A DNA stretch of 58,225 nucleotides from a virus (IMGVR_UViG_3300022074_000042:1-58225), one strand, 5' to 3'. Counted from the first letter of the stretch, positions 18,180 through 46,004 are shown. Program-made: numbers and translations. The notes: a model not told the origin generated them from the letters alone.

Positions 18180-18565
18180 TCGTAATCGATTTTAATATTT
18201 TTGCTTTCGTAACCTTTTTCTTTAATTCTGTTCGGATGTTCTGCGCCTTTACGTTCCTTTTTGTAATTATCGTAGAACTTTTCCTTTACTGGATCTAAGC
18301 CCCCAGATTTTTCTGCTCTCTTCGCACTCAATTCAGCAGACAGGTCCATCATATCGCCTATAGTGCCTTTTTTGTTGTGAGTAGCGTCAATGTATTGTTG
18401 ATTATTAAAAGGGTCTATAGAGCTATCTATGGATGCGTGGGGGACGGTCCAAACCCTCCCCCACTCTACACCAAATTCGTCTATATATATGTGTTCATCA
18501 TTCATCCTTTGAAACACCTCGCGGTGTTCATCTGTATCAGGATGTTTATAAACATATAAAGACAT
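18176..18565 (-). CDS. FmdB-like regulatory protein lacking the zinc-ribbon cysteines
   Basis: MSLYVYKHPDTDEHREVFQRMND follows the FmdB pattern MPxYxYxCxxC..FEv.q.m.d. Confidence 0.5.
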   Translation of the reverse strand: MSLYVYKHPDTDEHREVFQRMNDEHIYIDEFGVEWGRVWTVPHASIDSSIDPFNNQQYIDATHNKKGTIGDMMDLSAELSAKRAEKSGGLDPVKEKFYDNYKKERKGAEHPNRIKEKGYESKNIKIDYD

Positions 18566-18879
18566 TATTTTATATCTATTTTTTTTGCCTTCGCAATTGC
18601 CTTTTTAGGTAGAGTTATTTTTAAAAGACCATTCTTCAATAAAGCAGAGATGTGGTCCTCTGCCACTAAATCATATAAGAACAACTGGTATGATTTTTGT
18701 CTTTCTTCAGTTTTAGCATCTACCGTTAGGATATTATCTGTTACTTTAATATCTATGTCTTTCTTACAGAATCCAGCTAATTCGAACTCTGCCGCATAGA
18801 CATCTCCCGAGTCTTTAACTGGGTGAGTTTTAGTAGTTTTGCTAATATCGTTAAGAATGTTGTTAATTAATGTATTCAT
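18565..18879 (-). CDS. Small heat shock protein (Hsp20/alpha-crystallin)
   Basis: ELAGFCKKDIDIKVTDNILTV, ISALLKNGLLKITLPK and C-terminal IDI motif. Confidence 0.88.
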   Translation of the reverse strand: MNTLINNILNDISKTTKTHPVKDSGDVYAAEFELAGFCKKDIDIKVTDNILTVDAKTEERQKSYQLFLYDLVAEDHISALLKNGLLKITLPKKAIAKAKKIDIK

Positions 18880-24842: not shown

Positions 24843-25691
24843 ATGAGAGTATTATTTATATCTGACTTCACACTCGAACAAAGACAAGGTGGCGCTCAAG
24901 TAAGCAATAAATTGCTTATAGATAAAGGCAAAGAGTTGGGTCTTGATATAAAAGAACATCATCACAACTCATCAGTTACTGATTTCCTATCGTCTTATGA
25001 TTTAGTGGTTAATTCTAATTTAGAAGCTATTAGTAAAATAACTCCTCCAAAAATACCTTTGATTATTAAATCTCCTAATTCTGTTAGGTTGGAGCATGAC
25101 TCTTGTAGTTATTTAGACAATGACACAAGAAAGCTTTTGTTTTCTAAATCTAAAAAGAATTTTTTTTTAAGTAATTATCATTACAATTATTTTAAACATT
25201 TGTATGGGGATTACTTTCACAATGTAGAAATTGTCTACGACCCTATCGACACTTCTAAGTTTAAAAAATCGGACCATGAAAAAACATATGATGTGGTTTA
25301 TTGTGGTTACTTACATCCACTTAAAGGTTTAAACAACTTACTTCGGTTCGCGAAGCAACATACAGATAGGCAAATTGATATTTTTGGATGGGGAGAACTT
25401 TCTCCTCAAGAAACTTTTAAAGGTTATGATAATATTAAGTTTAATGGTGAGGTAAAATATGAAGAAATTCCTTCGATATTCCAATCAGCGAAAGCTATTT
25501 TTCATCAACCTATAGTAAATGAACCATTTTGCAGAATGGTAGGCGAGGCGATTTTATGCGGTGTGGAGGAAATTATAGGTGACAAATCAAAAATAGGAGC
25601 CTACATTGAATTCAATGATGTTGGTTATGAAAACTTTAGAGACGGCTGCGAAAACGCTCCATCTATATTTTGGGAAAGGGCTTTAAAATGA
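24843..25691 (+). CDS. Glycosyltransferase, GT4
   Basis: GGAQ, PIDTSKF, GYLHPLKG, EPFCRMVGEAILCG. Confidence 0.85.
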   Translation: MRVLFISDFTLEQRQGGAQVSNKLLIDKGKELGLDIKEHHHNSSVTDFLSSYDLVVNSNLEAISKITPPKIPLIIKSPNSVRLEHDSCSYLDNDTRKLLFSKSKKNFFLSNYHYNYFKHLYGDYFHNVEIVYDPIDTSKFKKSDHEKTYDVVYCGYLHPLKGLNNLLRFAKQHTDRQIDIFGWGELSPQETFKGYDNIKFNGEVKYEEIPSIFQSAKAIFHQPIVNEPFCRMVGEAILCGVEEIIGDKSKIGAYIEFNDVGYENFRDGCENAPSIFWERALK

Positions 25692-26533
25692 ATTTTGTTT
25701 GTGGAACTTATTTTAAGCATCAATGCGGCTTACAGTTAACGGATTATAAAAATGCCAGAGATTCTGTTTTTGTTAATTTCCAAAATGAATATTTAGACAA
25801 CAATCTTGTATTTTGCAAACCCGAATATCTAAGTTTATTAAATACTTATTTAAAAATAGGTTCTGTGAAAATCCCTGATGTATTTGATCTAGTTACCCAT
25901 AATTCTGACATTAATTTTGGCGCTCAAGAGATTGATTATGTATTAGATTTATTCCCAAATATTAATAATTGGTATACTCAAAACTTAACGTTTAATCATC
26001 CTCAATTAAAGCCTATTCCTATAGGAATCGCTAATCCTAAATGGTCTCATGGTAATCAACCAAGGTTTCTTGAGATTATGGAGGAGAATCAAGATAAGCA
26101 GAATAAAGTCTATGTTAATTTTAATGTCTCTACCAATCCTCCAGCCAGACATGATTGTTTAAATAAAATATCAGATCAATACCGTCCTCAAAATAAAAAA
26201 AATTATCCCAATGCGGCCTCGATACAAGATCATGACGATTTTGTGGAATCCACTCAAAAAGATTATTTAAGAAGTATAGCTAAATCTTACTTCACAGTTT
26301 CTCCTGTGGGTAATGGTTTAGATTGTCATAAAACTTGGGAAGCCATCTATATGAAAAGTGTTCCTATCGTCACTAGATGGCATGGGGTAGAAAAGTTTAA
26401 AGAAATGGGAATACCTATTCTAATCATAGACGATTGGTCTGAATTAAAAGACTTAGATCTTTCAGAAGACAATTATAAAAACATATGGGGAGATTTTAAT
26501 GTAAATTCTCTTAATTTTAATTTATTTAAATAA
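25688..26533 (+). CDS. Exostosin/GT47-like glycosyltransferase
   Basis: THNSD, PIPIGIAN, FTVSPVGNGLDCHKTWEAIYMKSVPIV. Start taken at the ATG overlapping the upstream stop. Confidence 0.65.
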   Translation: MNFVCGTYFKHQCGLQLTDYKNARDSVFVNFQNEYLDNNLVFCKPEYLSLLNTYLKIGSVKIPDVFDLVTHNSDINFGAQEIDYVLDLFPNINNWYTQNLTFNHPQLKPIPIGIANPKWSHGNQPRFLEIMEENQDKQNKVYVNFNVSTNPPARHDCLNKISDQYRPQNKKNYPNAASIQDHDDFVESTQKDYLRSIAKSYFTVSPVGNGLDCHKTWEAIYMKSVPIVTRWHGVEKFKEMGIPILIIDDWSELKDLDLSEDNYKNIWGDFNVNSLNFNLFK

Positions 26534-27168
26534 TGAAAAGTAGAAGCAGAGAATCGCACGATAATACTATGTATAATTTGCATGGTTTAGAATTTTGGGA
26601 AAAACATAACAAAGAACATATTGACCAAGCTTTTGATAATGAAGAGTTAAAAGTAGGCCGACTTTTGGAAAAAAATCCATCCATAAGAAAAAATGCGATA
26701 GATATAGGAAGCGGTGGAGGATGGATGAGTAAAAAACTTTCTAGTATTTTTGAAAATGTTTATAGCATAGAGCCTTCTTCAAAAGCTGTTAGCTTATGTA
26801 AAAGCTTATATGATTTACCGAACATTAAATGGATAGAGGGCTATGCGGAGGATATTTTAAAAAATGAAGAAATGCCCAAAGAAAATGTTTTTATTAATAC
26901 CTGCTCTGTTTTTATGCATATAGATGATAAAGATTTAATTCCTACTCTTGAGTATATTAACGAAAACTTTACTAACAGTATTTTTAGCTTTCAAGAATTT
27001 TGGTCTGAAGATATACCTTTTAACCAGCCCTTAACGAACTGTAGGACTAAAGCTTGGTGGCAATCTAATTTAAGTAATTGGGATCTAGATTTTCATGGCC
27101 CTAGTATGGCTGAACATGGAGATATGTATAAAAACTTTTTTAAAGGAATTCACGGACGTAAAAAATGA
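26533..27168 (+). CDS. Class I SAM-dependent methyltransferase
   Basis: AIDIGSGGG motif I, SIEPS, and SVFMHI. Confidence 0.85.
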   Translation: MKSRSRESHDNTMYNLHGLEFWEKHNKEHIDQAFDNEELKVGRLLEKNPSIRKNAIDIGSGGGWMSKKLSSIFENVYSIEPSSKAVSLCKSLYDLPNIKWIEGYAEDILKNEEMPKENVFINTCSVFMHIDDKDLIPTLEYINENFTNSIFSFQEFWSEDIPFNQPLTNCRTKAWWQSNLSNWDLDFHGPSMAEHGDMYKNFFKGIHGRKK

Positions 27169-27902
27169 AAAAAAAAGTTACTTATATTCTAAATACTTGG
27201 CAGCGTCCTCATACTCTTAAGGATCAAGTAGACGCAATTTCTAATCAAACAACAAAATGTGATGAGCTTATGATCTGGCAGAATAAACCAGAAAAAGCAG
27301 AGGATTCATTCATTATCCGAGACGATGAGGGATCTTTAAAAGTTTCTCATAACAATTATAATTATGGAGTTTGGGCTAGATTTGCTTTCGCTTTAAATGC
27401 TAAATCTGATTATATTTGCTTATTAGATGATGACACAATCCCAGGAAGTAAATGGACAGAAAATTGCATTGAAAACATTGAAAAAGAAAACGGCTTATAT
27501 GGAACGGTCGGAGTTGTTTTTGATGATACCAAATATCAATCATTTGAAAGATTTGGGTGGCCGAATCCAAACGAAGAAAAAAAACAAGTTGACATCGTGG
27601 GTCACTCTTGGTTTTTCCATAGGGATCTTTTAAGCGCTTTTTGGAGAGAAACTGGTCCTCCATTAAATAATATCTGTGGAGAGGATGTGCATTTTTCATA
27701 TTCTATACAGAAATATTTAGGATTAAACACTTATGTCCCGCCTCATCCAAAAGAAGATTTAGATCTTTGGGGAAGCAAACCTAAAGAGGCTATGCAATAC
27801 GGTGTTGATAAAAATGCTATTTCAGTCAACTCTAATGGAATTGATTTTGGTTTATCTTTAGATCACTACTATAAAAAAGGATTCAAATTATTGAGGTTGT
27901 AA
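27165..27902 (+). CDS. Glycosyltransferase, GT-A (GT2-like)
   Basis: ILNTWQRP, ICLLDDD (DxD), GEDVHFS. Confidence 0.8.
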   Translation: MKKKVTYILNTWQRPHTLKDQVDAISNQTTKCDELMIWQNKPEKAEDSFIIRDDEGSLKVSHNNYNYGVWARFAFALNAKSDYICLLDDDTIPGSKWTENCIENIEKENGLYGTVGVVFDDTKYQSFERFGWPNPNEEKKQVDIVGHSWFFHRDLLSAFWRETGPPLNNICGEDVHFSYSIQKYLGLNTYVPPHPKEDLDLWGSKPKEAMQYGVDKNAISVNSNGIDFGLSLDHYYKKGFKLLRL

Positions 27903-28888
27903 TGAAAATATTAATTTGTTTTGGAACAAGACCAGAGTGGTTAAAGGTAAAACCCTTGTTGAAAACTTTAGATAATTATCAGCTTTTATTTACTGGGCAA
28001 CATGTTGATCTTTTAAAAGACGTATGCACGGATTATAAAATAAAAATAAATCAAAATAAAAATAGACTAGATCAACTAGTCAGTGACTGTTTGTTACAAT
28101 TCCCAGAAGGTGATTTTGATTCTGTCTTAATTCAAGGAGATACAGCTTCTGCTTTTGCTTGTTCTGTGGCGGCTTTTCATAGAAAGAAAAAAATTTACTA
28201 TTTAGAAGCTGGTCTTAGAAGCTATAACCTTGAACATCCATATCCAGAGGAGGGGTATAGACAAATGATTTCAAGAATTTCTGATCTAAACTTATGCCCA
28301 ACTTCTTTATCTAAAGGTAATTTATTTAATGAACTAGCAAACGGCGATTGTCATGTGGTTGGTAATACAGTTTTAGATAACCTTTTACCCTACAAGGAAA
28401 AATGTGAATATGGCAATAAAGTCTTAGTAACTCTACATAGAAGAGAAAATCATGAACAAATGAGCGAATGGTTTAAAGCTGTTAATGATTTAGCTAAACA
28501 AAACAGCGAATTAGAATTTATATTACCTTTACATCCAAGTCCAAATGTGCAGCAGCACAAACACTTGTTAAACCACATAAACGTCTTAGATCCACTTCCT
28601 CATTCGATGTTGTTAGATATTTTAGTAAAATCAAAACTTGTAATTAGTGATAGCGGAGGTTTACAAGAAGAGGCTAGTTTCTTTAATAAAAAAGTCATAG
28701 TTTGTAGGCAGACAACTGAAAGGCCAGAAGGTAAAAACTCTGGGCATTTAATCATGTGCCAGTCACCTAAAGAATTATGTGGAATATTTTATAATTTAGA
28801 AGATAATTACAAAATCGAAGAGAAATGCCCTTACGGAGACGGCGAGTCTTCAATAAAGGTAAAAAAAATACTTGATGAAAAACTTTAG
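27902..28888 (+). CDS. wecB: UDP-GlcNAc 2-epimerase (non-hydrolysing)
   Basis: GTRPE, TGQH, QGDT, EAGLRS, PEE, HRREN, DSGGLQEEA, TERPE, PYGDG. Confidence 0.93.
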   Translation: MKILICFGTRPEWLKVKPLLKTLDNYQLLFTGQHVDLLKDVCTDYKIKINQNKNRLDQLVSDCLLQFPEGDFDSVLIQGDTASAFACSVAAFHRKKKIYYLEAGLRSYNLEHPYPEEGYRQMISRISDLNLCPTSLSKGNLFNELANGDCHVVGNTVLDNLLPYKEKCEYGNKVLVTLHRRENHEQMSEWFKAVNDLAKQNSELEFILPLHPSPNVQQHKHLLNHINVLDPLPHSMLLDILVKSKLVISDSGGLQEEASFFNKKVIVCRQTTERPEGKNSGHLIMCQSPKELCGIFYNLEDNYKIEEKCPYGDGESSIKVKKILDEKL

Positions 28889-29576
28889 ACAAGATTTTAT
28901 TAATTTAACTGAAAAGCTTAGAGGAAAAGAAAAGTTTTCTTTTTCTAAATATGCTGATGGTGAATATAAAATTTTAAGGAATGAGGCTATAACTAATTGT
29001 GACAATTGGACTTTTTCTCCTGACTTGCATCGAAAAGAACAATCTCTTCTTTTAGAATCTTTTCAATACGACCACGATGATTACATTGTTGGAATAAGTT
29101 GTCCATGCTGTCAGCCTATGGAGCATGTTCAGTGGATGAGAGATACTGTAAAAACAAAAAATGTAACTTGGGCTAATTTATTTGTTAATAGCAATTATCC
29201 ATATTTTGAAAAAGACCTTATCCCTATTTTTAATGATTGGGGCGAAGATGTTTTTCTTTTTGCTAATGAAAACGGCATCTCTAAACAAATGCCATTTAAA
29301 ATCAAAAAATACTTCCCGCTCAATATGAAAGCTTGGCAAGAGCCTTTTCTTTCTCATTGGATAAATCTAGGTATGCAAAAAGCTAAAGAATCTGAAGGAG
29401 CTTTATTTCTATTTGCAGGTGGGCCACTCGGTAACATTTTAAGTTATAAACTTCACAAAGCTAATCCTTTTAATACTTACATAGATATTGGTTCTACAAT
29501 TAGTCCTTGGGTAGTTGGTAAAAATAGAGACTATCATTTTGGAGGGAAGACATCACAACAAACTTGTATTTGGTAA
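28875..29576 (+). CDS. GT-D fold (DUF1792-like) glycosyltransferase
   Basis: SKYADGE (cf. RFGDGE), AGGPLGNIL and IDIGS motifs. Confidence 0.6.
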   Translation: MKNFRQDFINLTEKLRGKEKFSFSKYADGEYKILRNEAITNCDNWTFSPDLHRKEQSLLLESFQYDHDDYIVGISCPCCQPMEHVQWMRDTVKTKNVTWANLFVNSNYPYFEKDLIPIFNDWGEDVFLFANENGISKQMPFKIKKYFPLNMKAWQEPFLSHWINLGMQKAKESEGALFLFAGGPLGNILSYKLHKANPFNTYIDIGSTISPWVVGKNRDYHFGGKTSQQTCIW

Positions 29577-30271
29577 TGGATAACTTTAAAAATATAGTTT
29601 ACTCACATTCAGAATATTTCGATATTTTAGATATTTTTTTAGAACAACAAAAAAAGTTTGGAATAGAAAATATATTAGTATTCTCTGACAAAAAATTCAA
29701 CGATGAAAATGAGCATATCATTTACAATGAAAATGATGTTTATAGCGAAAGATTAAAAAAATCTTTAGAGAAAGTAAAAGAAGATATTATTTTATATCAA
29801 CATGAAGATATGTTTTTATACAAAAAACCGAATATAAATAAGGTTAAAAAATACATAAACATATTAAAAGACTCAAATTATTCGTTTATTAGACTCTGCA
29901 AAACAGGAGATTGTATTTTATCAAAATCCAATCTATTATCTTCCTTGTGGGAAGTAGATCCAACTTCAAAAGATTTCTTTGCACTACAACCAACAATATG
30001 GAAAAGAAAAAGTTTAATATCTTTTCTAGAAAAATCTAATAAATGTAGTGGGTGGGATTTAGAATTAAATTCTGGTAAAATTAATTCATCAATAAGAGGA
30101 CTTTTACACTATGATGGCGAAGAAGCTAGGGGTGGTCATTTCAATTCTTGCGTTTGGCCTTATGTAGCTACAGCTATAGTAAAAGGTGGATGGAATTTTA
30201 GAGAATACTCGACTGAATTAAGCAGGATAAAAAAGATAAAAAAAAGTAAAAGACAACATGCCGTTTGGTAA
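29576..30271 (+). CDS. Putative GT-A glycosyltransferase
   Basis: YSERL, ILYQHEDMFL, LQPTIWKR, WDLE, IVKGGW; lies within the glycan cluster. Confidence 0.5.
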   Translation: MDNFKNIVYSHSEYFDILDIFLEQQKKFGIENILVFSDKKFNDENEHIIYNENDVYSERLKKSLEKVKEDIILYQHEDMFLYKKPNINKVKKYINILKDSNYSFIRLCKTGDCILSKSNLLSSLWEVDPTSKDFFALQPTIWKRKSLISFLEKSNKCSGWDLELNSGKINSSIRGLLHYDGEEARGGHFNSCVWPYVATAIVKGGWNFREYSTELSRIKKIKKSKRQHAVW

Positions 30272-30277
30272 ATTTTT

Positions 30278-31780
30278 ATGAAAATATTAGGTTTTAGCGC
30301 TGGCTCACACGATTCTAGTTATGCCATCTTTGAAGATGGTCGTTTAGTAATACACGAAGAATTAGAGAGGATAACTAGAGTAAAAGAAACAGAAGAAGAT
30401 GTATTGCAATATTTAGAAGAGTCAGGGGTAGACCTTGATGAGTTTGACTACATTGTTACATACCCACACGGGAACCCTATAGGTTACTCACAGACTTACT
30501 TAAATATACAACGTAAAAACCCATCTAAATGTGTAGAGATTGGTCATCATTTAGCTCATGCAGCTAATGCTTTTTATAATAGCAAGTATGATGACTCATT
30601 AGTTGTAACGATAGATGGAGGGGGTTGGGACAATGGAAGACCTGGATGTCTAACGTCATGGCAAGCTGATAAAGATAGTATTAAAAATTTAGATTATAGA
30701 ATGTCTCCAAATTTAGGTGGGTTTTGGCAAGATTGCACAAGAGAGATTTTTGGATTAAGCGGTGGTGGACCTCCATATGGGTGTCAGGCTGGAACCGTTA
30801 TGGCTATGTCATGTATGGCTAATGAATCTGAAACACCAGAAAGACCCTACAGTCAATATGCGGGTTGTTCTGATCAAAGAAAATATAATTTAGCACAAGG
30901 TATTCAAGATGTTACGGAGAATATTGTAAAAGAATATATACAGAAAAATCTAGGAGAAAACACCAACTTGTGTTTAGCTGGCGGTGTCGTTCTCAATTGT
31001 GTATTAACTGGCAAGATTAAATCTTGGTTTCCTCAAATTAAAAATATTTTTATACCACCTGTTCCTTATGATGCAGGTTTAGCTATTGGGTGTGTACAAT
31101 ACTTTTTGAAAGAACATTTGAAAAAGGATTTGATAATTGATCAATTATTTGACTCTCCATATTTAGGAGCGTCTTATGGCGATGAACACATTAATAATGC
31201 TTTATTAGAGTTTGCAGATAAAATTGAAACTGTTGAATGCTCTGATTTAGATGTAGCAAAATTATTGACAGAAAAAAATATTATATCTGTTTATGGAGGT
31301 AAAAGCGAGTCGGGTAGAAGAGCTTTAGGCAATAGGTCTATATTAGCAGATCCTAGACACGAAGATATGAAGGATATTATTAACCAAAAAGTCAAACACA
31401 GGCAAAGCTTTAGACCTTTTGCTCCATCTATATTACGAGAGCATGTAGCTGATTGGTTTGTAGAAGATATAGATAGCCCCTATATGAGTTTTGCTATACC
31501 ATTTAAAAAAGGAAAAGCCAAATTAGTTCCTGCTGTTGTCCACTTGGACGGCACGGGTAGACTACAAACTGTAACACAGTCATCTAATAATTGGTATTAC
31601 AATTTTATAAAGACATTTAGCTCGTTAACTGATGTCCCAATTATTCTAAATACTAGCTTTAATGATAGAGAGCCTATTGTTGAAACACCAAGTGATGCGA
31701 TCAAAACTTTTTTAAAAACAGATATAGATTTTCTTTACTTTAGAGAAAAAAATTGTTTAGTTAAAAAAAATATTCAATAA
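30278..31780 (+). CDS. O-carbamoyltransferase (NodU/CmcH/TobZ family)
   Basis: HDSS, ELERITRVK, HHLAHA, DGGG, LAGGVVLNC, DAGLAIG, RALGNRSILADPR, RPFAP, NTSFN. Confidence 0.93.
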   Translation: MKILGFSAGSHDSSYAIFEDGRLVIHEELERITRVKETEEDVLQYLEESGVDLDEFDYIVTYPHGNPIGYSQTYLNIQRKNPSKCVEIGHHLAHAANAFYNSKYDDSLVVTIDGGGWDNGRPGCLTSWQADKDSIKNLDYRMSPNLGGFWQDCTREIFGLSGGGPPYGCQAGTVMAMSCMANESETPERPYSQYAGCSDQRKYNLAQGIQDVTENIVKEYIQKNLGENTNLCLAGGVVLNCVLTGKIKSWFPQIKNIFIPPVPYDAGLAIGCVQYFLKEHLKKDLIIDQLFDSPYLGASYGDEHINNALLEFADKIETVECSDLDVAKLLTEKNIISVYGGKSESGRRALGNRSILADPRHEDMKDIINQKVKHRQSFRPFAPSILREHVADWFVEDIDSPYMSFAIPFKKGKAKLVPAVVHLDGTGRLQTVTQSSNNWYYNFIKTFSSLTDVPIILNTSFNDREPIVETPSDAIKTFLKTDIDFLYFREKNCLVKKNIQ

Positions 31781-31781
31781 T

Positions 31782-32591
31782 ATGAAAACTGCTATTTGTT
31801 TACATGGTCTAGCTAGAGGAAGCTCTACGCCAGCATACGGTGCATATAAGGAAAAGTTCGCCACGCTTTTAAGCAAGATAGGTGATGCTGATGTTTTTAT
31901 CCACTCTTGGGATACTGACATTTCCGAAGAGTTGGTCGAAATATTTAACCCAATTTCGTATAAAATTGAAAATCAAAAAGACTTTGCTGAAGAACTTGAT
32001 AGGCTTAAAGATATAAACAATTCTCATAACACAGGAGAAATTCAATATAACTTATTTAATATGTTAAGTTTCTTGTATTCACGGAAGCGTTCAGTTGACT
32101 TAAAAAGGCAATATGAAATTGAAAATAATATTAAATATGATTGTGTTCTTATTTCTAGGTTTGATGTAGGTTTTCATAATTCAGGTCTTAACAAAACAAG
32201 CCACTTAAATTTTAATTTAAATTTAGATATGGAAAAAGTCTACCAAGCATACTGGGATCAACTAAACGCTGGATCATCTGATCATTGGTATTACAGTAAT
32301 TCAGAAAATATAGACATCATTTCAACCATATATGATAAAGTATTTGAGTATCTACAACCAAACAGCGACTATACATATTTATGTAAGACTGGATGGCCAA
32401 TTAGTAATAAACATGATAAATTTTCTAATGAGTTACTAAAAGAAGATCGATCTAGTGATTTAGCTATTTATGTTTCTGATGATACGGTCCTTGTAAATCC
32501 TCACTGCTTGTATAAATATCACCTTATGATTAATAATTTATGGGAAAATAATCAATCTATATTTTTAAATAAAAACTTGTGGCATGACTAG
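31782..32591 (+). CDS. Putative glycosyltransferase-like protein
   Basis: KTAICLHGLAR, DVFIHSW, YDCVLISRFD pattern seen in glycan-cluster proteins. Confidence 0.45.
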   Translation: MKTAICLHGLARGSSTPAYGAYKEKFATLLSKIGDADVFIHSWDTDISEELVEIFNPISYKIENQKDFAEELDRLKDINNSHNTGEIQYNLFNMLSFLYSRKRSVDLKRQYEIENNIKYDCVLISRFDVGFHNSGLNKTSHLNFNLNLDMEKVYQAYWDQLNAGSSDHWYYSNSENIDIISTIYDKVFEYLQPNSDYTYLCKTGWPISNKHDKFSNELLKEDRSSDLAIYVSDDTVLVNPHCLYKYHLMINNLWENNQSIFLNKNLWHD

Positions 32592-32603
32592 CTTAGTAAT
32601 AAT

Positions 32604-33122
32604 ATGATAAAATTATTAATATTAGATGTCGATGGAGTTTTAACTGATGGCACAAAACTTTATTCGGAAAACGGACTCGGTAAAATGAAATCGTTTTGCG
32701 ATAAAGATTTTACAGCGATCAAAAGAATAAAAGCTTCTGGAGTTAAAGTGTGTTTCCTTAGTGGAGATGAAAATGTAAATAGAGCTATAGCTGAAAATAG
32801 GAATATTGATTTTCACTTCGCGAGAGGCAAAAACAAAAAAGATTTTTTGGAGAAGTTTTGTATGATTTACGATTGTCTTGCAGATGATATTTGTTTCGTT
32901 GGTGATGATTTATTCGATGTGGATTTATTAAAAAATGTAAAATATTCTTTCTGCCCTACAGATTCTTGCGAAGAGGTTAAAGATTCCTGTATACATGTAT
33001 TATCTAGTAAAGGTGGCCATAATTTAATTATGGAACTCCATGATTATTTATTATCTAATGACTTAATTAAAAAAGCAGACTTACAATCTGTTATGGATCT
33101 TGATGCAGCAGAAAAATTTTAA
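32604..33122 (+). CDS. KdsC/YrbI-like HAD phosphatase
   Basis: LILDVDGVLTDG, LSG, K, FVGDDLFD, SKGG. Confidence 0.85.
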   Translation: MIKLLILDVDGVLTDGTKLYSENGLGKMKSFCDKDFTAIKRIKASGVKVCFLSGDENVNRAIAENRNIDFHFARGKNKKDFLEKFCMIYDCLADDICFVGDDLFDVDLLKNVKYSFCPTDSCEEVKDSCIHVLSSKGGHNLIMELHDYLLSNDLIKKADLQSVMDLDAAEKF

Positions 33123-33807
33123 TCTTGGTTTATTTGGCAGGAAGTATTTAGATACAGTAGTTTATTTAAATACTTTAAAGTCGGGCGAAACCAATATTGC
33201 TTTGAAAGTTGATAAAACTGTTGGCGGCATTTTTAATATTTTAAAGGCTAATATTCCATCGGTTATATCTTACTGCTATCAAGACAGTGAAGTAGAAGCA
33301 TTTATTATCAGTGAGTCTGATAGTTCGACAAGAAGCTCTATTATTCACTCTTTTCGTAATTCTGAAAAACCTAAAATAAAAGAGGATTTATTAGATTGGT
33401 TACATATTGCATATGTAGATGACTTGTCTCAACCTGAAATATTAAATAATTTAAAAACAAAAATAAGTTTAGATTTTTGCACAATTAAAGAAAGAGAAAA
33501 TTATCTCCATTTAATTAAAAAATCATCATTAGTTTTCGATTCTAGAGAAAGGAAAGCTTTATATAGCGACCTTAATTTTAAAACACCTTTAATATTACAC
33601 GATAAACACGGCTGCGAATGCATAATTCAAGGTAAAGTCGTGAGTGAGGGTTTCACCGATCCACAGGAAAATATTCATGTCAATGGAGCTGGCGATATTT
33701 TCGCTGGAATATTTATTTCTAAATACTATAATTCTACACTAGACGATGCTATAAAATTAACTCCAAAAGAGACAACCAAATACCTTATTAAAAAAAATGA
33801 AATATAA
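33103..33807 (+). CDS. PfkB/ribokinase-family sugar kinase (compact)
   Basis: C-terminal VNGAGDIFAG signature, N-terminal GG, WLHIAY. Confidence 0.75.
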   Translation: MQQKNFNLGLFGRKYLDTVVYLNTLKSGETNIALKVDKTVGGIFNILKANIPSVISYCYQDSEVEAFIISESDSSTRSSIIHSFRNSEKPKIKEDLLDWLHIAYVDDLSQPEILNNLKTKISLDFCTIKERENYLHLIKKSSLVFDSRERKALYSDLNFKTPLILHDKHGCECIIQGKVVSEGFTDPQENIHVNGAGDIFAGIFISKYYNSTLDDAIKLTPKETTKYLIKKNEI

Positions 33808-34945
33808 TTTACTTTTACCCATAGCTGGTAAGGCTCAAAGGTTTGTTGATCAAGGTTATACAATGCCCAAGCCTTTAATTATGGCTAAAACAAAACAAGT
33901 TATTGATTGGGCTATGGAGTCTATCGATACAAAAGATTGTAATTTGATTTTTGCTGTAAGGCTTGAACATATAAATAATTTTTCTATAGATGAGATTTTA
34001 AAGCAAAAGTTTGGAGAAAGTGTAAAAATTGTAGTTATTGATCACGATACAGATGGCTCTGTTTCGACATGTTTGTTAGCCAAAGAGTATATTGATAATG
34101 ATATCCCCTTAATTATTTATACCCCAGATGTTTATTTCCAAAACAAATTTGATCCTGATGATATAAATGAAAATTTAGATGGCCTTTTGCTTACTTTTAA
34201 AGCTAATAGCCCAGCTCACAGTTATGTAGCTACAGACGAAAATGGATACGCGACTAAAACGGTAGAAAAACAAGTAATTAGTTCAGATGCGGCTGTTGGT
34301 GTTTATTATTTTAAAAAAGGTAGATATTTTGTTGAATATGCTGAAGAGCTTGTGCGGAAAGACATTAGAACGAAAGATGAGTTTTATATCTGCCCCATGT
34401 ATAATTTGCTGATTAGAGATGGTCGGAGCGTTAGTATTAAGCAGGTTGAAAAAATGCATGTGCTAGGCACTCCAGAAGAATTAGAATTTTTTGTTGATAA
34501 GGTTGCTTACAAATTTGGTGAAAAACCTGTAGGTCTTTGCTGTGATCACTCTGGCTATCAAAGGAAGCAAGATGCTAAAACCGTCTTGGAGTCTTTAGGT
34601 ATTGAATACGTTGATTTTGGATGCCATGTAGAGAAAGATGTAGACTATAATGCTTATGTGAACCAAGCGGTAGAATCCTTAAATAACAAAACTTGTGATT
34701 TTATTTTAGGTTTTTGCAGAACTGGTCAAGGTGTTAATATTTTAGCAAATGATAAAAAAGAAGTAAGGGCTGCATTGATTTTTGACGAATATACAGCGGA
34801 AATGTCTCGCAGACATAATTGTGCCAACTTTTTTTCTATACCTTCTAAGTATACATCCATTTCTTCTCTTAAAGATATTATAAATACATTAGTAAGTTCA
34901 TCTTTTGATGGGGGTAGACATATGACTAGAGTAAGCAAAAAATGA
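33797..34945 (+). CDS. Sugar-phosphate nucleotidyltransferase fused to ribose-5-phosphate isomerase B
   Basis: N-terminal PIAGKAQRF...PKPLI, EKQVIS, GVYYF, LGTPEEL. C-terminal (from about 34522) CDHSG, DFG, FCRTGQG, AN, RRHNCAN, FDGGRH. Confidence 0.88.
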   Translation: MKYNLLLPIAGKAQRFVDQGYTMPKPLIMAKTKQVIDWAMESIDTKDCNLIFAVRLEHINNFSIDEILKQKFGESVKIVVIDHDTDGSVSTCLLAKEYIDNDIPLIIYTPDVYFQNKFDPDDINENLDGLLLTFKANSPAHSYVATDENGYATKTVEKQVISSDAAVGVYYFKKGRYFVEYAEELVRKDIRTKDEFYICPMYNLLIRDGRSVSIKQVEKMHVLGTPEELEFFVDKVAYKFGEKPVGLCCDHSGYQRKQDAKTVLESLGIEYVDFGCHVEKDVDYNAYVNQAVESLNNKTCDFILGFCRTGQGVNILANDKKEVRAALIFDEYTAEMSRRHNCANFFSIPSKYTSISSLKDIINTLVSSSFDGGRHMTRVSKK

Positions 34946-35355
34946 TCTTAATATCTCACAGAGGAAATCTAGAAGGGCCATCTAATTTAGAAAATCACCC
35001 CGACCAGATCCAAAAGGTTTTGCGGTTAGGCTTTGATTGTGAAATAGATTTGTGGAGAGAAGACAGTAAATGGTATCTTGGTCATGATCATCCAGAGTAT
35101 GAAGTTGATGTAAATTTTTTTTGCAAACCAAAATTGTGGATTCACGCAAAAAACTTATCTGCATTAAATTGTATACCGAGATATTTAAATTTTTTTTGGC
35201 ATCAAGAAGATGATTTCTCTTTAACATCCAAACACTTTATATGGACTCACCCAAACAAACCTGTTTCGGAAAAATCCGTTATTGTAGATAACACAAAAAA
35301 CTGGAAAGAAAAAAACTACAAATCTTTCGGGGTTTGTTCTGATTGGATTTTATGA
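34942..35355 (+). CDS. Minimal GDPD/PLC-like phosphodiesterase
   Basis: ISHRGN, EN, EIDLW, LGHD, WIHAKN, GVCSD. Confidence 0.7.
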   Translation: MILISHRGNLEGPSNLENHPDQIQKVLRLGFDCEIDLWREDSKWYLGHDHPEYEVDVNFFCKPKLWIHAKNLSALNCIPRYLNFFWHQEDDFSLTSKHFIWTHPNKPVSEKSVIVDNTKNWKEKNYKSFGVCSDWIL

Positions 35356-36401
35356 AAAAAATTATTATTACAGGAGTTACAGGTCAAGATGGTAGCCTTA
35401 TGGCTGATTATCTTTTGAAACATACAGAGCATACAATTATTGGAGGCGCTAGGAGACTTAGTGTAAAAAACCACAAAAACATCGAACACCTAGAAGATAA
35501 CGACAGATTCTTTCTTATTGATTTAGATGTTTCAGACCCTCAAAACACAGAAAGAGTTATATCTGAACACAAGCCTGACTATTTTATAAATTTTGCAGCA
35601 AACTCTTTTGTCGGAACTAGTTGGAAAATGCCGACTCAACATATGGAGACAAATGCTATGGCTGTTTTGCACCAATTAGAAGCTATTCGCAGACACGCTC
35701 CCAATTGCCGATATTACAACGCTGGCAGCTCTGAAGAGTTTGGCGATATTGTAGAGTCTCCACAAACAGAAGAACACCCTTTGCGCCCTAGAAGCCCGTA
35801 TGGGGCTGCTAAATGCTCCGCTAGGCATTTGGTCAAAGTTTATAGAGATTCATACGATATTTATGCCGTCCAAGGGTTTTTGTTCAACCATGAAGGAGTA
35901 AGAAGAGGGGAAGAGTTTGTGACTCGCAAAATTACAAAAAATGTCGCCAGAATTCTTGTAGAATTTGAATTAGGTAAAGAAATTGAACCTTTACAATTAG
36001 GTAATGTAGATTCAAAAAGAGACTGGAGTGATGCTGAAGATTTTGTTCAAGGTGTCTGGTTGATGTTGAACCAAGATAGGAAAGATCCAAAAGAATATGT
36101 TTTATCTTCCAATGAGACTCACACTATTAGAGAGTTTGTGGAAGAGGCTTTTAATTTTGCTGGATTTCACAGAAGCCAATGCAAATGGAAGGGTGAAGGG
36201 TTGGAAGAAAAGTATTTTCACGGATCTGATCTTCTTGTAGAGATCAACAAAGATTTTTACAGACCAGCAGAGGTTGATTTGTTATGGGGAGACTCTACTA
36301 GAGCTAGAGAAGAGTTGGGTTGGGAGCCAAAAACTAATTTTTTTCAGCTTGTGAAAAAAATGATTGACCGAGATGTGGCGGCAGTTTACCCTTACCCGTG
36401 A
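35352..36401 (+). CDS. gmd: GDP-mannose 4,6-dehydratase
   Basis: ITGVTGQDG, AANSFV, SSEEFG, PRSPYGAAK, FNHE, FVTRKIT, RDW, RPAEVDLL. Confidence 0.93.
   Translation: MKKIIITGVTGQDGSLMADYLLKHTEHTIIGGARRLSVKNHKNIEHLEDNDRFFLIDLDVSDPQNTERVISEHKPDYFINFAANSFVGTSWKMPTQHMETNAMAVLHQLEAIRRHAPNCRYYNAGSSEEFGDIVESPQTEEHPLRPRSPYGAAKCSARHLVKVYRDSYDIYAVQGFLFNHEGVRRGEEFVTRKITKNVARILVEFELGKEIEPLQLGNVDSKRDWSDAEDFVQGVWLMLNQDRKDPKEYVLSSNETHTIREFVEEAFNFAGFHRSQCKWKGEGLEEKYFHGSDLLVEINKDFYRPAEVDLLWGDSTRAREELGWEPKTNFFQLVKKMIDRDVAAVYPYP
36364..36392 (+). promoter_or_regulatory. sigma70-like promoter TTGACC-17-TACCCT at the head of the replication operon
   Basis: The GTG start at 36398 lies 5 nt after the -10 box. Confidence 0.45.
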
Positions 36402-42823: not shown

Positions 42824-43452
42824 ACGAATCACTACTTAGATTTAACAAAAAGCAAAGATATGTGGTCTTTGATACTGAAACAGAGGGTTTGAACTTGATT
42901 ACTTCTCGACCTTGGCAAGTCGCTTGGATGGTCGTAGAAGGAGACAGTGTAATTGAGAAAAATGATCTGTTTATTGAGTGGCCTGACTTGGAGGTTTCAG
43001 AGGGTGCTGCTAAAATCACAGGTTTTACAGAAAAGGAATACAACAAAAGATGTGAACCCCCTAAACAAGTCTGGGATAAATTTTCTAAAGAATTATATAA
43101 TCCTGAAAACTTGATAATAGGGCAGAACCTTTTAGGTTTTGATGTTTATATGGTTAATATTTGGAGAAGGCTTATGAATTTACGTGCAGATTATTCTTTT
43201 ATACCTAGAATTTTAGACACTAAGGCTTTAGCCACAGCTATAGCTAAAGAAATGCCTGTAGTTAAAGATGATTTTATTGGCTGGCAATACAGGTTGTTAA
43301 ATTACAGAGAAAGAGGTTTAAAAACATCTCAAGCCACTTTATTGAAGAAATATAATATTGACCATGACCCTAAGAGGCTGCATGATGCTCTATACGATAT
43401 TGAGATGAACTTTAAAGTATTCCGTAAACAATTATTCGATCTTGAGATATGA
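42820..43452 (+). CDS. dnaQ: DEDDh 3'-5' exonuclease (Pol III epsilon-like)
   Basis: VFDTETEGL, GQNLLGFD, LDT, HDALYD. Confidence 0.88.
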   Translation: MNESLLRFNKKQRYVVFDTETEGLNLITSRPWQVAWMVVEGDSVIEKNDLFIEWPDLEVSEGAAKITGFTEKEYNKRCEPPKQVWDKFSKELYNPENLIIGQNLLGFDVYMVNIWRRLMNLRADYSFIPRILDTKALATAIAKEMPVVKDDFIGWQYRLLNYRERGLKTSQATLLKKYNIDHDPKRLHDALYDIEMNFKVFRKQLFDLEI

Positions 43453-46004
43453 GTTCTAGCACATTTAAAGGGTATGATACCCCATTTCCAGTTGGGGTGA
43501 AACTCCCAGAAATCAAAATACAAAAAAAATATTATGACGAGGTTTCTTGTAAAGACCTGGGAGACAACTTTAAATTCTTAAGGAAGCTTTGCTTTGCGCG
43601 TCTTAAAGAGAAAGGAATTCATGAGTTTGAAAACGCTCAAGTTTATTACGATAGATTAAAAGAAGAGTTAACGATTTTTGATGAACTTGGTTTTGTGGAT
43701 TACATTCTTTTGAATTGGGATATTATTAACTTCTGTAAAGAAAACGATATTCCGACAGGAGCAGGTAGAGGTAGTGCGGCAGGTTCCTTGGTTCTCTATG
43801 TCATAGGAGTTACCAATATCGATCCTATTGAATACGATCTATTCTTTGAGAGGTTCGTCTCAAAAAGCAGGGCTAAGAAGATCGAGCATAATGGAGAAGT
43901 ATTTTTAGATGGTAGTTTATTGGCTGACGTAGATAACGATATTTCCTACGATAGAAGGGCAGAGGTTATTAAATACATCGAAGATAAGTATGAAGGTAAG
44001 ACATCAAAAATTCTCACCTTAAATACTCTTAGTGGTAAGCTTTGCATGAAAGAGTGTGGTAAGATTATAGCTGAACTTTCTGAAATGGAGGTTAATCAAA
44101 TAAGTGATACAATCCCTAAACATTTTGGCATCGTAGCTAAATTAGATACAGCATATCAAGAGAGCGAGTCTTTCAAATCTTACGCTGATAAACATCCTAA
44201 AGTATTTAATATAGCTAAAAAATTACAAGGATTGAATAAAAATACTGGAGTCCATCCTTCTGGGATTTCTATTTCATATTATGATTTAGATGGGATTATG
44301 CCACTTCAGAAAACTAATGATGATTCTTTAATTTCTGGTTACGATATGAATGACGTAGCTAGCCTTAGTGTCAAATTTGACATTCTAGGTCTAAGAACTC
44401 TTTCTGTTGTCCATGATGTTTGCAAGCAAGTGGGCATAAACGCTTCGGACATAGATATTAACCATGAAACTATTTATGCTGCTTTATCCTGTCTCCGATC
44501 ACCTCAAGGTCTTTTCCAGATAGAAGCAGAAACAAACTTCAAAGTTTGCAAGCTAATAGCTCCTCAAAATCTAGAGCAATTGTCTGCCGTGGTAGCTATA
44601 GCAAGACCTGGAGCTTTAGATTTCAAGGATAATTATGCTACTTATGTAAGAACTGGGGATTTCCAGTCTGTTCATGAATTCTTTGATGATATTTTGAGCT
44701 ATACTGGTGGTATTCCGCTCTATCAAGAGCAACTTATGAAGATGGCTGTAAAGGTTGGCTTCACTCTAGACGAAGCTGAACAACTAAGAAGAATTGTTGG
44801 CAAAAAGAAAGTCGATCAAATGCCAGCTTGGAAGGCCAAGATTGAGGAAAAAATTATTTCCAACAAATTAGATAGTGCTATTGGTGATGTTCTTTGGAGA
44901 GTCGCGGAGGATTCTGCTAATTACTCATTTAACAAATCTCACTCTATCAGTTACGCTCACTTGGCTGCTATAACTGTTTACTTAAAATTTACATACCCAC
45001 AAGAGTTCTTTTTGAGCTTATTAAAGTTTGCTAAATTTGAACCTAACTCTCATGAGGAAATAGCTAAAATCTCTCAAGAGCTTTCTCATTTCGATATTAA
45101 GCTTTTACCACCAGATTTAAATAAGTCTGATATCGACTTTAAGATAGAGGGTAAAAATATTAGGTATGGATTAAATTCTATTAAAGGCGTATCCACTAAA
45201 GTTTTACAATCTTTGCTTGATTTTAGAGAGGAGTCTTTCTCTAATAAATATGAAATATTCTTGTCTGCAAAACAAGCAGGTTTGAATATAGGAACTTTAT
45301 CAGCTTTAGTTCAAGCGGGTTTACTAGATTCTTTTGTCAAAAGCAATCGTCCTAGATTAGTCTTAGAGGCTCAAACATTTAATATTTTAACAGATAGAGA
45401 AAAGAGAAATTTTGTAGCCCTTGGGGAGAGAGATGATTATGACATAATTAACTCCATTCATAATGCTAAAAAGGGAGATATCGTTGGAGATGATAACAGA
45501 AAGCTCTTTTCAGAGAAAAGATTCAATACATTTCGTAAAAAATATCAGCCATATAAAGATATTTACGAGATGAACAAAGAGCATATAAAATACGCTAATT
45601 GGTTTTTCGAAGAGAAATTGTTGGGCTATAGTTATTCTCACAATATTAGAGAAGTGTTTAGTTATGAAGACGATTTTAATTCCGCAGACGATGTTAAGGA
45701 GCTTGGAGACCGTGCTAATGTAAAATTTGTAGGTGTTTTGACTGATATTATGCGTAGAACTAGCAGAAATGGCAATAAATATGCCCGTTTAACTATGCAG
45801 GACGAAGGGGGAGTTCTAGAAGGTTTATTTTTAGATGGTAGTAGAGATGCTAGACTGACAAATTATTTAGATTCTGGAAAAAAATTACCCAAAAAGTCAG
45901 ATGTCGTGATAATATATGGCTCTAAGGGAGATGATATTGTTTTCATCGACAAGATTTTTCCCCTAAAAGACAAAATCTACATGAAGTTATCTGAACTTAA
46001 ATAG
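43449..46004 (+). CDS. dnaE: DNA polymerase III alpha catalytic subunit lacking the PHP domain
   Basis: GAGRGSAAGSLV, LFFERF, DVDND, GVHPSG, KFDILGL, YQEQLM, YSFNKSH and a C-terminal OB fold. Confidence 0.95.
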   Translation: MSSSTFKGYDTPFPVGVKLPEIKIQKKYYDEVSCKDLGDNFKFLRKLCFARLKEKGIHEFENAQVYYDRLKEELTIFDELGFVDYILLNWDIINFCKENDIPTGAGRGSAAGSLVLYVIGVTNIDPIEYDLFFERFVSKSRAKKIEHNGEVFLDGSLLADVDNDISYDRRAEVIKYIEDKYEGKTSKILTLNTLSGKLCMKECGKIIAELSEMEVNQISDTIPKHFGIVAKLDTAYQESESFKSYADKHPKVFNIAKKLQGLNKNTGVHPSGISISYYDLDGIMPLQKTNDDSLISGYDMNDVASLSVKFDILGLRTLSVVHDVCKQVGINASDIDINHETIYAALSCLRSPQGLFQIEAETNFKVCKLIAPQNLEQLSAVVAIARPGALDFKDNYATYVRTGDFQSVHEFFDDILSYTGGIPLYQEQLMKMAVKVGFTLDEAEQLRRIVGKKKVDQMPAWKAKIEEKIISNKLDSAIGDVLWRVAEDSANYSFNKSHSISYAHLAAITVYLKFTYPQEFFLSLLKFAKFEPNSHEEIAKISQELSHFDIKLLPPDLNKSDIDFKIEGKNIRYGLNSIKGVSTKVLQSLLDFREESFSNKYEIFLSAKQAGLNIGTLSALVQAGLLDSFVKSNRPRLVLEAQTFNILTDREKRNFVALGERDDYDIINSIHNAKKGDIVGDDNRKLFSEKRFNTFRKKYQPYKDIYEMNKEHIKYANWFFEEKLLGYSYSHNIREVFSYEDDFNSADDVKELGDRANVKFVGVLTDIMRRTSRNGNKYARLTMQDEGGVLEGLFLDGSRDARLTNYLDSGKKLPKKSDVVIIYGSKGDDIVFIDKIFPLKDKIYMKLSELK

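Follow-up and report, generated by a model that had tools for sequence, protein, structure and literature searches.

A candidate nucleotide-sugar pathway built around a nucleotidyltransferase-RpiB fusion in an uncultured marine phage

A four-gene cassette at 32604-35355 on the + strand of the IMG/VR virus record IMGVR_UViG_3300022074_000042 encodes a GT-A-type sugar-phosphate nucleotidyltransferase fused to a complete RpiB isomerase domain, together with a HAD phosphatase, a PfkB-fold kinase and a minimal protein of the glycerophosphodiester phosphodiesterase (GDPD) fold. The whole record (58,225 bases, rated ~52% complete) was analysed and is referred to here as the window; it is an uncultured marine phage, of the tailed type according to Pfam scans. 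The cassette, taken with two transferase-like genes upstream of it, is given a somewhat better than even chance of making a nucleoside diphosphate (NDP)-sugar by way of an isomerase, a 1-kinase, a terminal phosphatase and a nucleotidyltransferase. This four-step logic is known; the enzyme set and the fused enzyme are new to the literature searched. Searches on RpiB, nucleotidyltransferases and phages found no paper describing the fusion or the cassette, which agrees with the preliminary description of this DNA, made from the sequence alone, where no described pathway with such a fusion was known.

Organization of the cassette and its domains

The features of the cassette are as follows, with lengths in amino acids (aa).

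32604..33122, + strand: gene A, KdsC-like HAD-IIIA phosphatase, 172 aa (PF00702, 3.6e-8)
33103..33807, + strand: gene B, short ribokinase/PfkB-fold kinase; the open reading frame (ORF) opens with TTG at 33100 and ATG 33103 is the likely start
33797..34516, + strand: gene C, N-terminal domain, GT-A-type sugar-phosphate nucleotidyltransferase, residues ~1-240 (rmlA_long, 2.4e-10)
34529..34945, + strand: gene C, C-terminal domain, RpiB/LacAB-family isomerase, residues 245-382 (PF02502, 6.7e-34)
34942..35355, + strand: gene D, minimal GDPD-fold protein, 137 aa (predicted structure; catalytic residues kept)

The four + strand ORFs span 32604-33122 (172 aa), 33100-33807 (235 aa), 33797-34945 (382 aa) and 34942-35355 (137 aa). 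The ATG start of gene B at 33103 is suggested by the homologue P0001, and with it genes A and B overlap by 20 nucleotides (nt); B and C overlap by 11 nt, and C and D share the 4 nt ATGA. A further shared ATGA (4 nt) joins gene D to the following GDP-mannose 4,6-dehydratase (GMD) family gene, if that gene starts at ATG 35352. The four genes had been described as overlapping and coupled, and every junction read does overlap; the four domain assignments made at the same time likewise hold, through profile matches for A and C and predicted structures for B and D. A PHROG search returned only unnamed families.

The RpiB half of gene C matches PF02502 at 117.2 bits against a cutoff of 24.7, covering model positions 1-137 of 138, passes TIGR00689 (106.8 bits against 88.3) and aligns end to end with the RpiB of C. 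thermocellum (3he8). The motifs CDHSG, CRTGQG, RRHN and FDGGRH, on which the call of a complete RpiB domain had been based, are present, invariant in 23/23 aligned homologues and aligned with the same motifs in solved RpiBs. Residues D250, H251, C307, T309, H340, N341, R374, H375 and R378 are also invariant in the 23 sequences and belong to motifs found in 3he8; from the E. coli and C. thermocellum structures, the Asp-His pair, the Cys (base) with the Thr, and the His-Asn pair are presumably catalytic, and GGRHxxR is taken here to bind phosphate. In comparison with canonical RpiB/AlsB (PF02502; PDB 3he8, 1o1x, 1nn4), the viral domain keeps the full-length match and the Asp-His, Cys-x-Thr, His-Asn and GGRHxxR elements; it differs in being always fused to a nucleotidyltransferase, in scoring under the equivalog cutoff, and in carrying R308 and C342 in place of Gly and Asp/Asn.

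The nucleotidyltransferase half is identified by rmlA_long over residues 6-219 and by PDB entry 4evw, a 'nucleoside-diphosphate-sugar pyrophosphorylase' (7.8e-16, residues 5-232); in the window protein it has no Pfam match at E 0.01. Homologues of gene C number 1163 clusters (90% identity) at E 0.001 among 3963 candidates, and the best 120 of these are 65-90% identical over at least 90% of the length, all 120 with a precomputed PF02502 match and 21 also with PF00483. Both domains are strongly conserved together, with 77% mean column identity in the homologue alignment. Cluster annotations of 10 fusion homologues gave no function beyond 'RpiB/LacA/LacB family'.

Gene A reaches PF00702 at 34.5 bits against a cutoff of 26.4. 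Its best NCBIfam model is KdsC/YrbI TIGR01670 (1.3e-23), where 83.7 bits against 106.95 miss the subfamily cutoff; the KDN-9-P phosphatase model follows at 3.7e-23 and 82.4 bits (cutoff 180), and KdsC PRK09484 at 72.7 bits (cutoff 208). The protein contains DVDGV at residues 8-12 and VGDDLFD, which includes GDD; DxDx(T/V) is taken to be the HAD nucleophile motif and GDD the C-terminal acidic HAD motif. Gene A is proposed to be the phosphatase that removes the terminal phosphate.

For gene B no NCBIfam model matched, and the assignment comes from structure. An AlphaFold2 (AF2) model built on 38 homologues has a predicted local distance difference test score (pLDDT) of 95.1, and the top 50 rows of its VIA search are all ribokinase-family kinases, with Z from 20.5 to 17.8 and ~225 of 235 residues aligned; the best are 8ome_A (Z 20.5, root-mean-square deviation (rmsd) 2.9, 226 aligned) and 1rk2_B (Z 19.8). 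The structural matches comprise ketohexokinase, ribokinase, nucleoside kinases and sulfofructose kinase, and Foldseek likewise returned ketohexokinase and ribokinase at E about 1e-11. The motifs GG..N (G42, G43, N46) and NGAGD (N195-G196-x-G198-D199) are invariant in 38 sequences, GG being presumably the sugar-binding motif of the ribokinase family and GAGD the catalytic one. Longer relatives pass the Pfam PfkB model: the L022 protein of 289 aa scores 63.6 bits (2.5e-17) and a separate PfkB protein of phage S-SM2 63.9 bits, while the SynMITS9220M01 kinase scores 25.4 bits. Four arginines (R78, R132, R149, R151) are also invariant in the family, which, as far as sequence can suggest, would fit an anionic, phosphorylated substrate. 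Gene B is proposed to be a sugar-phosphate 1-kinase. A phmmer search of the gene B and gene D proteins against PDB sequences gave nothing significant.

Gene D is assigned from its AF2 model, which has a pLDDT of 97.6. In a wide VIA search GDPD and phospholipase D make up 20 of the top 22 rows, and the GDPD-type barrels score Z 10.4-7.8, with 1vd6_A best (rmsd 3.4, 132 aligned); Foldseek alone gave weak GDPD rows, the best at E 1.9e-3, and a profile comparison matched the GDPD 7e0v at E 1e-3 over the 53 residues 2-54. Seven residues, H6, R7, E34, D36, H48, H68 and K70, are invariant in 33 sequences of the family, and H6-R7, E34-x-D36 and H48 align with solved 7e0v; His-Arg, Glu-x-Asp and His are taken to be the catalytic and metal residues of GDPDs, and gene D has a His where these enzymes carry a third acidic ligand. 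Compared with the GDPD superfamily (1vd6, 1o1z, 7e0v), the barrel topology is shared over ~131 of 137 residues, with H-R, E-x-D and H at the same places, but gene D has ~60% of the usual length, lacks a Pfam model, lies in a glycan island, and belongs to a family some of whose members are fused to DUF7796, WavE, GT61 or methyltransferase domains. From the predicted structure, gene D is proposed to be an active-looking phosphodiesterase of the same system.

Proposed pathway and sugar

What was observed is which domains occur, that their catalytic residues are conserved, how the genes are ordered and that they are kept together; the reaction order, the substrates and the product set out here are inferred from this. 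The RpiB domain of gene C would convert a ketose phosphate and an aldose phosphate from the pentose-phosphate pool of the host into one another; the PfkB-fold kinase B would then phosphorylate the sugar phosphate again, at position 1, to a sugar 1,n-bisphosphate, from which the KdsC-like HAD phosphatase A would remove the terminal phosphate to leave a sugar 1-phosphate. The N-terminal domain of gene C would couple this sugar 1-phosphate to a nucleoside monophosphate to form the NDP-sugar, so that a kinase and phosphatase pair would stand in place of a phosphomutase. The donor would then be consumed by the co-conserved DUF7796-like and g29564 transferases encoded in the glycan island.

For the sugar itself the evidence leans towards a pentose, D-ribofuranose or a close relative being the first candidate. 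The hints are the textbook reaction of RpiB, the long forms of gene B, which are weakly closest to ribose-1-phosphate kinases and ribokinase, and genes in related cassettes: an AraD-like class II aldolase (S-SM2), split transketolase genes (L022) and a junction of gene D with Rpe (P0251). A bolder form of the proposal, considered unlikely, is that the product is an NDP-pentofuranose not known as a biological donor (NDP-D-ribofuranose first), that the mini-GDPD is a new, dedicated small phosphodiesterase and that the viral 'rpiB' is a glycan enzyme. The NDP-D-ribofuranose route would run from ribulose-5-P to ribose-5-P, ribose-1,5-bisphosphate and ribose-1-phosphate. The mini-GDPD could then reopen a sugar 1,2-cyclic phosphate, the decay product of labile 1,2-cis NDP-furanoses, or could edit a phosphodiester laid by the DUF7796 transferase, its occasional fusion partner.

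Conservation and distribution

The cassette is co-conserved far beyond chance. Among 56 IMG/VR loci fetched, 49 hold a full-length fusion and the other seven are cut by contig ends. A gene B-family kinase lies directly upstream of the fusion in all 47 loci with at least 800 bases of upstream sequence, being 817 bases away in L009 and L010; 42 of these were counted by an overlap-threshold script and five (L016, L029, L040, L046, L055) by inspection. A HAD gene lies within 3 kb upstream in 45 of the 47, being absent from L009 and L010, and the mini-GDPD occurs in 48 of the 49 full-fusion loci, the exception (L020) having only 2,062 bases downstream. Gene D directly adjoins the fusion in 7 loci; in the others the distance is 1.2-7.3 kb, and sometimes gene D is found upstream of the HAD gene. 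The synteny search that had been called for thus found the block kept together in dozens of viral contigs as well as in two cultured cyanophages. In these, the Synechococcus phages SynMITS9220M01 and Bellamy, the HAD-kinase-fusion triplet occurs at about 50% identity, its genes being annotated as 'phosphatase', 'hypothetical protein' and 'phosphatase'. In cyanophages the cassette is surrounded by lipopolysaccharide (LPS)-type genes of GT11 and GT25.

In the 19 matching records of Synechococcus phages, RpiB is present only in fused form (3 records, 2 phages). The fusion was not found in GTDB genomes, one for each of 185,579 prokaryote species, in an alignment-based scan with two peptide patterns only, which returned one nucleotidyltransferase-only and two RpiB-only bacterial loci; a single-protein pattern scan of the same collection gave nothing. 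'Virus-restricted' is thus a bounded statement, its bounds set by the two-pattern scan. At the DNA level, cultured phages yielded no more than one match, of 163 bases.

The related cassettes hold further genes, among them a SnoaL-like gene between kinase and fusion and, in L022, the split transketolase genes right after the fusion. Sulfotransfer_2 genes also abut the fusion in related cassettes, with an APS-kinase-like gene nearby, which suggests sulfated glycans. Coordinates of further genes in relatives are L022 7633-7986 and 9155-10268, L049 9143-9772, L037 9149-9922, L055 2602-3198 and L044 4900-5676.

The mini-GDPD family is large, with 2863 representatives (50% identity) at E 0.001 and 1099 at 1e-30, no Pfam or NCBIfam model, and mostly stand-alone members of about 150 aa. 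In 22 long members the additional part is DUF7796 in four (P0244, P0248, P0249, P0345), WavE, GT61, an N-terminal RuBisCO-large domain and an Rpe fragment in one each, methyltransferase domains in two, a weak sulfotransferase in one and nothing recognisable in eleven; none of the 22 joins the mini-GDPD to a KdsC-type domain, a combination that was looked for. Gene D adjoins DUF7796-like genes in SynMITS9220M01 and in phage B23. The 17 cultured-phage records with gene D all come from Synechococcus phages, and each of them also belongs to the 19 records of such phages matched by the nucleotidyltransferase domain. From these sequence comparisons, gene D appears to track the nucleotidyltransferase family in general, and the DUF7796/WavE-type transferases, more than the RpiB cassette as such; the earlier suggestion that it processes a phosphodiester intermediate is therefore still a guess.

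The nucleotidyltransferase also occurs in other settings. An RpiB-less fusion, in which the same nucleotidyltransferase family carries a beta-phosphoglucomutase-type HAD_2 domain at its N-terminus, annotated 'nucleoside-diphosphate-sugar pyrophosphorylase' or 'glucose-1-phosphate thymidylyltransferase', is present in four loci.

L003 5344-6726: HAD_2-nucleotidyltransferase fusion, phage S-CAM9
L065 4631-6004: HAD_2-nucleotidyltransferase fusion, phage B23
L018 15049-16476: HAD_2-nucleotidyltransferase fusion
L052 14095-15507: HAD_2-nucleotidyltransferase fusion

In B23 and L018 a mini-GDPD gene follows directly. In these fusions a second, independent arrangement of genes sets a phosphatase or mutase step immediately before this nucleotidyltransferase. 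The nucleotidyltransferase family is doubled in Bellamy and S-SM2, and stands alone in L033 and in a Lachnospiraceae metagenome-assembled genome (L004 6188-10529). In the latter a 41%-identical nucleotidyltransferase is followed directly by two WavE proteins, one of them 1122 aa long with three WavE domains, with an ABC-2 exporter upstream and an APH-like kinase downstream; the locus may be a bacterial counterpart of the donor-transferase pairing. A homologue search with the Lachnospiraceae nucleotidyltransferase returned thousands of proteins, unnamed or generically named. The gene names in the S-SM2 record look unreliable: SSM2_207 and SSM2_210 (L064 6693-7004 and 8334-8663; ~105 aa), annotated 'phosphoheptose isomerase', have no SIS match, one having a weak HAD_PNKP match and the other nothing, and SSM2_211, a 'putative nucleotidyltransferase', matches Cupin_2.

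Comparison with known systems

The enzymes of ADP-L-glycero-beta-D-manno-heptose and GDP-D-glycero-alpha-D-manno-heptose synthesis are GmhA, then HldE or HldA with HldC, or HddA with HddC, and GmhB. These pathways share with the cassette an isomerase, an anomeric kinase (of the PfkB class in HldE), a HAD-IIIA phosphatase and a nucleotidyltransferase, and HldE likewise joins two non-consecutive steps. The window differs in having RpiB instead of an SIS isomerase, in fusing the isomerase and not the kinase to the nucleotidyltransferase, and in a nucleotidyltransferase that is GT-A-like and not of the HldC type. None of the heptose equivalogs HldE/HldA, GmhB and HldC/HddC was reached by window genes A, B and C, and no SIS match, as expected of a GmhA-type isomerase, occurs in the 57 window ORFs surveyed with Pfam.

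The CMP-Kdo pathway (KdsD, KdsA, KdsC, KdsB) has in common a pentose-phosphate isomerase, a KdsC-type phosphatase and a nucleotidyltransferase. The cassette differs from it in lacking a Kdo-8-P synthase, with a kinase in that position, in a phosphatase that falls under the KdsC cutoff and in a nucleotidyltransferase that is not CTP_transf_3. A nonulosonic or Kdo-type route, prompted by the KdsC-like phosphatase and a UDP-GlcNAc 2-epimerase gene in the island, was rejected as no NeuB/KdsA-type synthase is found in the island by Pfam.

The closest phage system is UDP-D-arabinofuranose synthesis, known from RB69 (gp55, gp52:53, gp51), DLP3 (gp83, gp82, gp81) and HY126 (AfhE/AfhF), in which an isomerase, the AfhE kinase/uridylyltransferase and the AfhF HAD phosphatase act (PMC13326640; see also PMC6024577). 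Both systems are phage-encoded, draw on a pentose-phosphate source, use an isomerase, a 1-kinase giving a 1,5-bisphosphate, a HAD phosphatase and a GT-A-type nucleotidyltransferase, and place two non-consecutive steps on one polypeptide. The arabinofuranose enzymes are described there as an SIS-type isomerase, an aminoglycoside/choline-kinase-like kinase fused to the nucleotidyltransferase, and a GmhB-like phosphatase, whereas the window cassette has RpiB as the fusion partner, a separate PfkB kinase and a KdsC-like phosphatase; in that account the product goes onto DNA and a mini-GDPD is absent. RB69 is not among the 45 phage records that match the window fusion, and no ThyA-like dCMP hydroxylase or DNA arabinosyltransferase was detected by Pfam in the window, which is ~52% of the genome. 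Since the isomerase family and its fusion partner differ from both precedents, the cassette is best regarded as an independent assembly of the same logic and not as a member of either system. An archaeal pentose bisphosphate pathway has also been described (PMC9700705). The logic of isomerase, kinase, HAD phosphatase and nucleotidyltransferase put forward in the preliminary description stands as the most economical reading, with UDP-arabinofuranose (PMC13326640) as a second precedent, from phages; a heptose, one of the donors it named, is not favoured.

Weighing the alternatives

Several observations weigh against the proposed pentose route. The RpiB domain misses the rpiB equivalog TIGR01120 (92.9 bits against 138.65), and R308 and C342 are invariant beside the catalytic residues where five solved RpiBs carry G and D/N; on both counts its substrate may differ from ribose or ribulose 5-phosphate. 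The nucleotidyltransferase domain reaches no curated equivalog, gene B scores 11.8 bits against a cutoff of 25.8 for PfkB (PF00294) and has no Pfam match at threshold, and gene D has no Pfam or NCBIfam match even at E 10. The likeness of gene A to KdsC- and KDN-9-P-type phosphatases, whose known substrates are sugar acids, exceeds its likeness to GmhB, and the PfkB kinases closest in fold to gene B act on ribose O5 or ketofuranose O1, not on the anomeric hydroxyl. The pentose hints are all weak matches or neighbourhood arguments; with ribose 5-phosphate plentiful in any host, a ribose route has no obvious need of an isomerase of its own. A GMD-family dehydratase, which requires a GDP-hexose or GDP-heptose, is translationally coupled to gene D in the window, the four-step scheme leaves gene D without a role, and the reaction order and product are themselves deductions.

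The same four-step logic could yield an NDP-heptose or else, starting from fructose-6-P and dispensing with phosphomannomutase, a GDP-hexose such as GDP-mannose, and GMD would turn the product into a 6-deoxy sugar; GDP-mannose and GDP-heptose are both substrates of GMD-family enzymes, the last bases of gene D are shared with the GMD-family gene, nearer relatives have a close GMD (53-83% identity) after it, domain I of HldE belongs to the PfkB kinase class, and the L029 kinase has one weak rfaE_dom_I match (E 0.0016). This outcome is nevertheless rated distinctly improbable. No GT9 or SIS/GmhA occurs among the 57 window ORFs, the window kinase lacks an NCBIfam match, and the only GmhB match of the phosphatase is marginal (0.0033, L022 only); sedoheptulose-7-P and fructose-6-P, moreover, have a C3 configuration opposite to that of known RpiB substrates. 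No SDR follows gene D in 26 of 48 loci and many of the others are only 21-27% identical to the window GMD, so GMD is not a constant partner of the cassette. The heptose donor, one of those proposed in the preliminary description, is not favoured: kinase and phosphatase miss the HldE and GmhB models, GT9 is missing from the window and pentulose-phosphate neighbours recur. Of the GT9, GT4 and GT-D enzymes named there as users of the donor, GT4 is found in the island, no Glyco_transf_9 appears at E 0.001 in the 57 ORFs of a window covering ~52% of the genome, and GT-D is a weak hint (E 0.045, 28872-29576). Alternatively, the nucleotidyltransferase might activate a terminal (non-anomeric) phosphate, as with CDP-ribitol, CDP-glycerol and CDP-6-fructose, with RpiB supplying a pentose or pentulose 5-phosphate, a DUF7796/WavE-like phosphotransferase adding a unit through a phosphodiester link and the mini-GDPD trimming or editing this link. 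Gene D keeps the GDPD catalytic site and its partners are DUF7796, WavE and GT61 transferases, not precursor enzymes; weak IspD matches occur among nucleotidyltransferase paralogues, the window has an RXYLT1_C-like gene, and a JGI record calls a truncated cluster member 'choline kinase'. Such a scheme, however, gives no role to the two genes that accompany the fusion most constantly, those of the kinase (47/47) and the HAD phosphatase (45/47); the nucleotidyltransferase resembles the sugar-1-phosphate enzymes of PF00483 more than IspD, and no reductase is constant in cassette loci. The scheme is considered quite unlikely.

The remaining explanations concern the use to which the enzymes are put. 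An NDP-sugar for DNA hypermodification (glycosylated bases) and not for a protein or envelope glycan, like the RB69 arabinose module, would suit an island lying between ribonucleotide reductase and a UvsX/RecA-like gene and a logic equal to that of the RB69-type module; against it, the window, about half of the genome, has no ThyA-like hydroxylase or hydroxymethylase by Pfam, its tailoring genes are GT4, GT2, a methyltransferase, a carbamoyltransferase, UDP-GlcNAc 2-epimerase and GMD, with sulfotransferases in relatives, and the cyanophage cassettes lie among GT11/GT25 LPS-type genes, making this very improbable. Only a slight chance is left to the view that the RpiB domain is a pentose-phosphate auxiliary gene that raises ribose-5-P for nucleotide synthesis beside unrelated neighbours. 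In marine viral metagenomes, Enav et al. (2014; PMC4022391) observed an enrichment of K01808 (RpiB), located on scaffolds of cyanophages, and, noting that cyanobacteria have rpiA and not rpiB, read the viral gene as an aid to nucleotide synthesis; rpi is also one of the pentose-phosphate genes of viruses listed by Hurwitz et al. (2013; PMC4053976), and the window island adjoins ribonucleotide reductase genes. All 49 complete viral copies found, however, are fused in frame to the nucleotidyltransferase, in glycan islands with kinase and phosphatase, RpiB is fused-only in the matching Synechococcus phage records, the two domains have a joint conservation of 77%, and non-canonical residues stand beside the catalytic Cys.

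Glycan island and genomic context

The cassette lies in a glycan island at ~24843-36401, with every gene on the + strand, between the ribonucleotide reductase genes and the RecA-like gene; its 3' end is two genes short of this UvsX/RecA-like gene. The order is GT4, an RXYLT1_C-like protein, a methyltransferase, GT2, UDP-GlcNAc 2-epimerase and two proteins of unknown family, then a NodU-type carbamoyltransferase, the DUF7796-like gene, the four cassette genes and the GMD-family gene.

25670-26533, + strand: RXYLT1 C-terminal domain protein (Pfam, 7.5e-10)
29564..30271, + strand: g29564, protein of unknown family, 235 aa, upstream partner kept with the cassette; without Pfam, NCBIfam or PHROG match
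30278-31780, + strand: NodU/CmcH-type carbamoyltransferase inside the island (Carbam_trans_C, 8.8e-62)
31782..32591, + strand: DUF7796-like protein, 269 aa (Pfam DUF7796, 1.7e-4, under cutoff)
35352..36401, + strand: GMD-family short-chain dehydrogenase/reductase (SDR) (PF16363, 7.1e-104); the ORF opens with TTG at 35343

The DUF7796-like gene and g29564 lie just upstream of gene A in the window, are co-conserved there and form a single 528-aa ORF in L022; by tblastn, g29564 is immediately upstream of the HAD gene in many related loci, and its neighbours in an Atlas search are viral hypothetical proteins only. The DUF7796-like protein is the probable transferase that uses the cassette product, and g29564 a probable transferase subunit. 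GMD scores 321 bits with TIGR01472, under the cutoff of 415, and an SDR directly follows gene D in 22 of 48 loci with 21-83% identity to the window GMD; the GMD gene is probably an island-boundary gene and not a core member of the cassette. Human RXYLT1 is a ribitol-phosphate xylosyltransferase. The carbamoyltransferase implies a carbamoylated sugar, and a homologue of it also lies close to the cassette in L030.

Elsewhere in the window, Pfam identifies the tailed-phage genes for a 2138-aa tape-measure protein, a minor tail protein and both ribonucleotide reductase subunits, and the replication and recombination genes for SSB, a RecA/UvsX-like protein, DnaB, primase, a PD-(D/E)XK nuclease, the DNA polymerase III alpha subunit and a ClpB-like ATPase. 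The last is a two-ring ClpB/Hsp104-type AAA+ protein (AAA_2 2.5e-53, ClpB_D2-small; 46016-48478, +) whose gene adjoins that of the polymerase subunit (43449-46004, +), and an Hsp20 small heat-shock protein is also encoded (18565-18879, -); this is a chaperone load unusual for a phage. A second glycosyltransferase, a 630-aa protein with a GT1-type domain and DUF4214, is found at 50901-52793 (+), distant from the island.

Implications

These comparisons suggest that marine viral rpiB, at least in the copies fetched, may be one half of a glycan enzyme. If the proposed pathway is true, the reading of viral rpiB as a pentose-phosphate or dNTP auxiliary gene (PMC4022391, PMC4053976) would need revision, and the cassette would be a third independently assembled phage route from isomerase, kinase, phosphatase and nucleotidyltransferase to an activated sugar. 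Its product may be a donor sugar not yet known, and the pathway would offer a first functional handle on the DUF7796/WavE-type transferases. Should the bolder form of the proposal hold, viral 'rpiB' would be a glycan-building enzyme so far found almost only in viruses. The fusion and mini-GDPD families are both large, and both are found in the glycan islands of phages abundant in the ocean, two cultured cyanophages among them.

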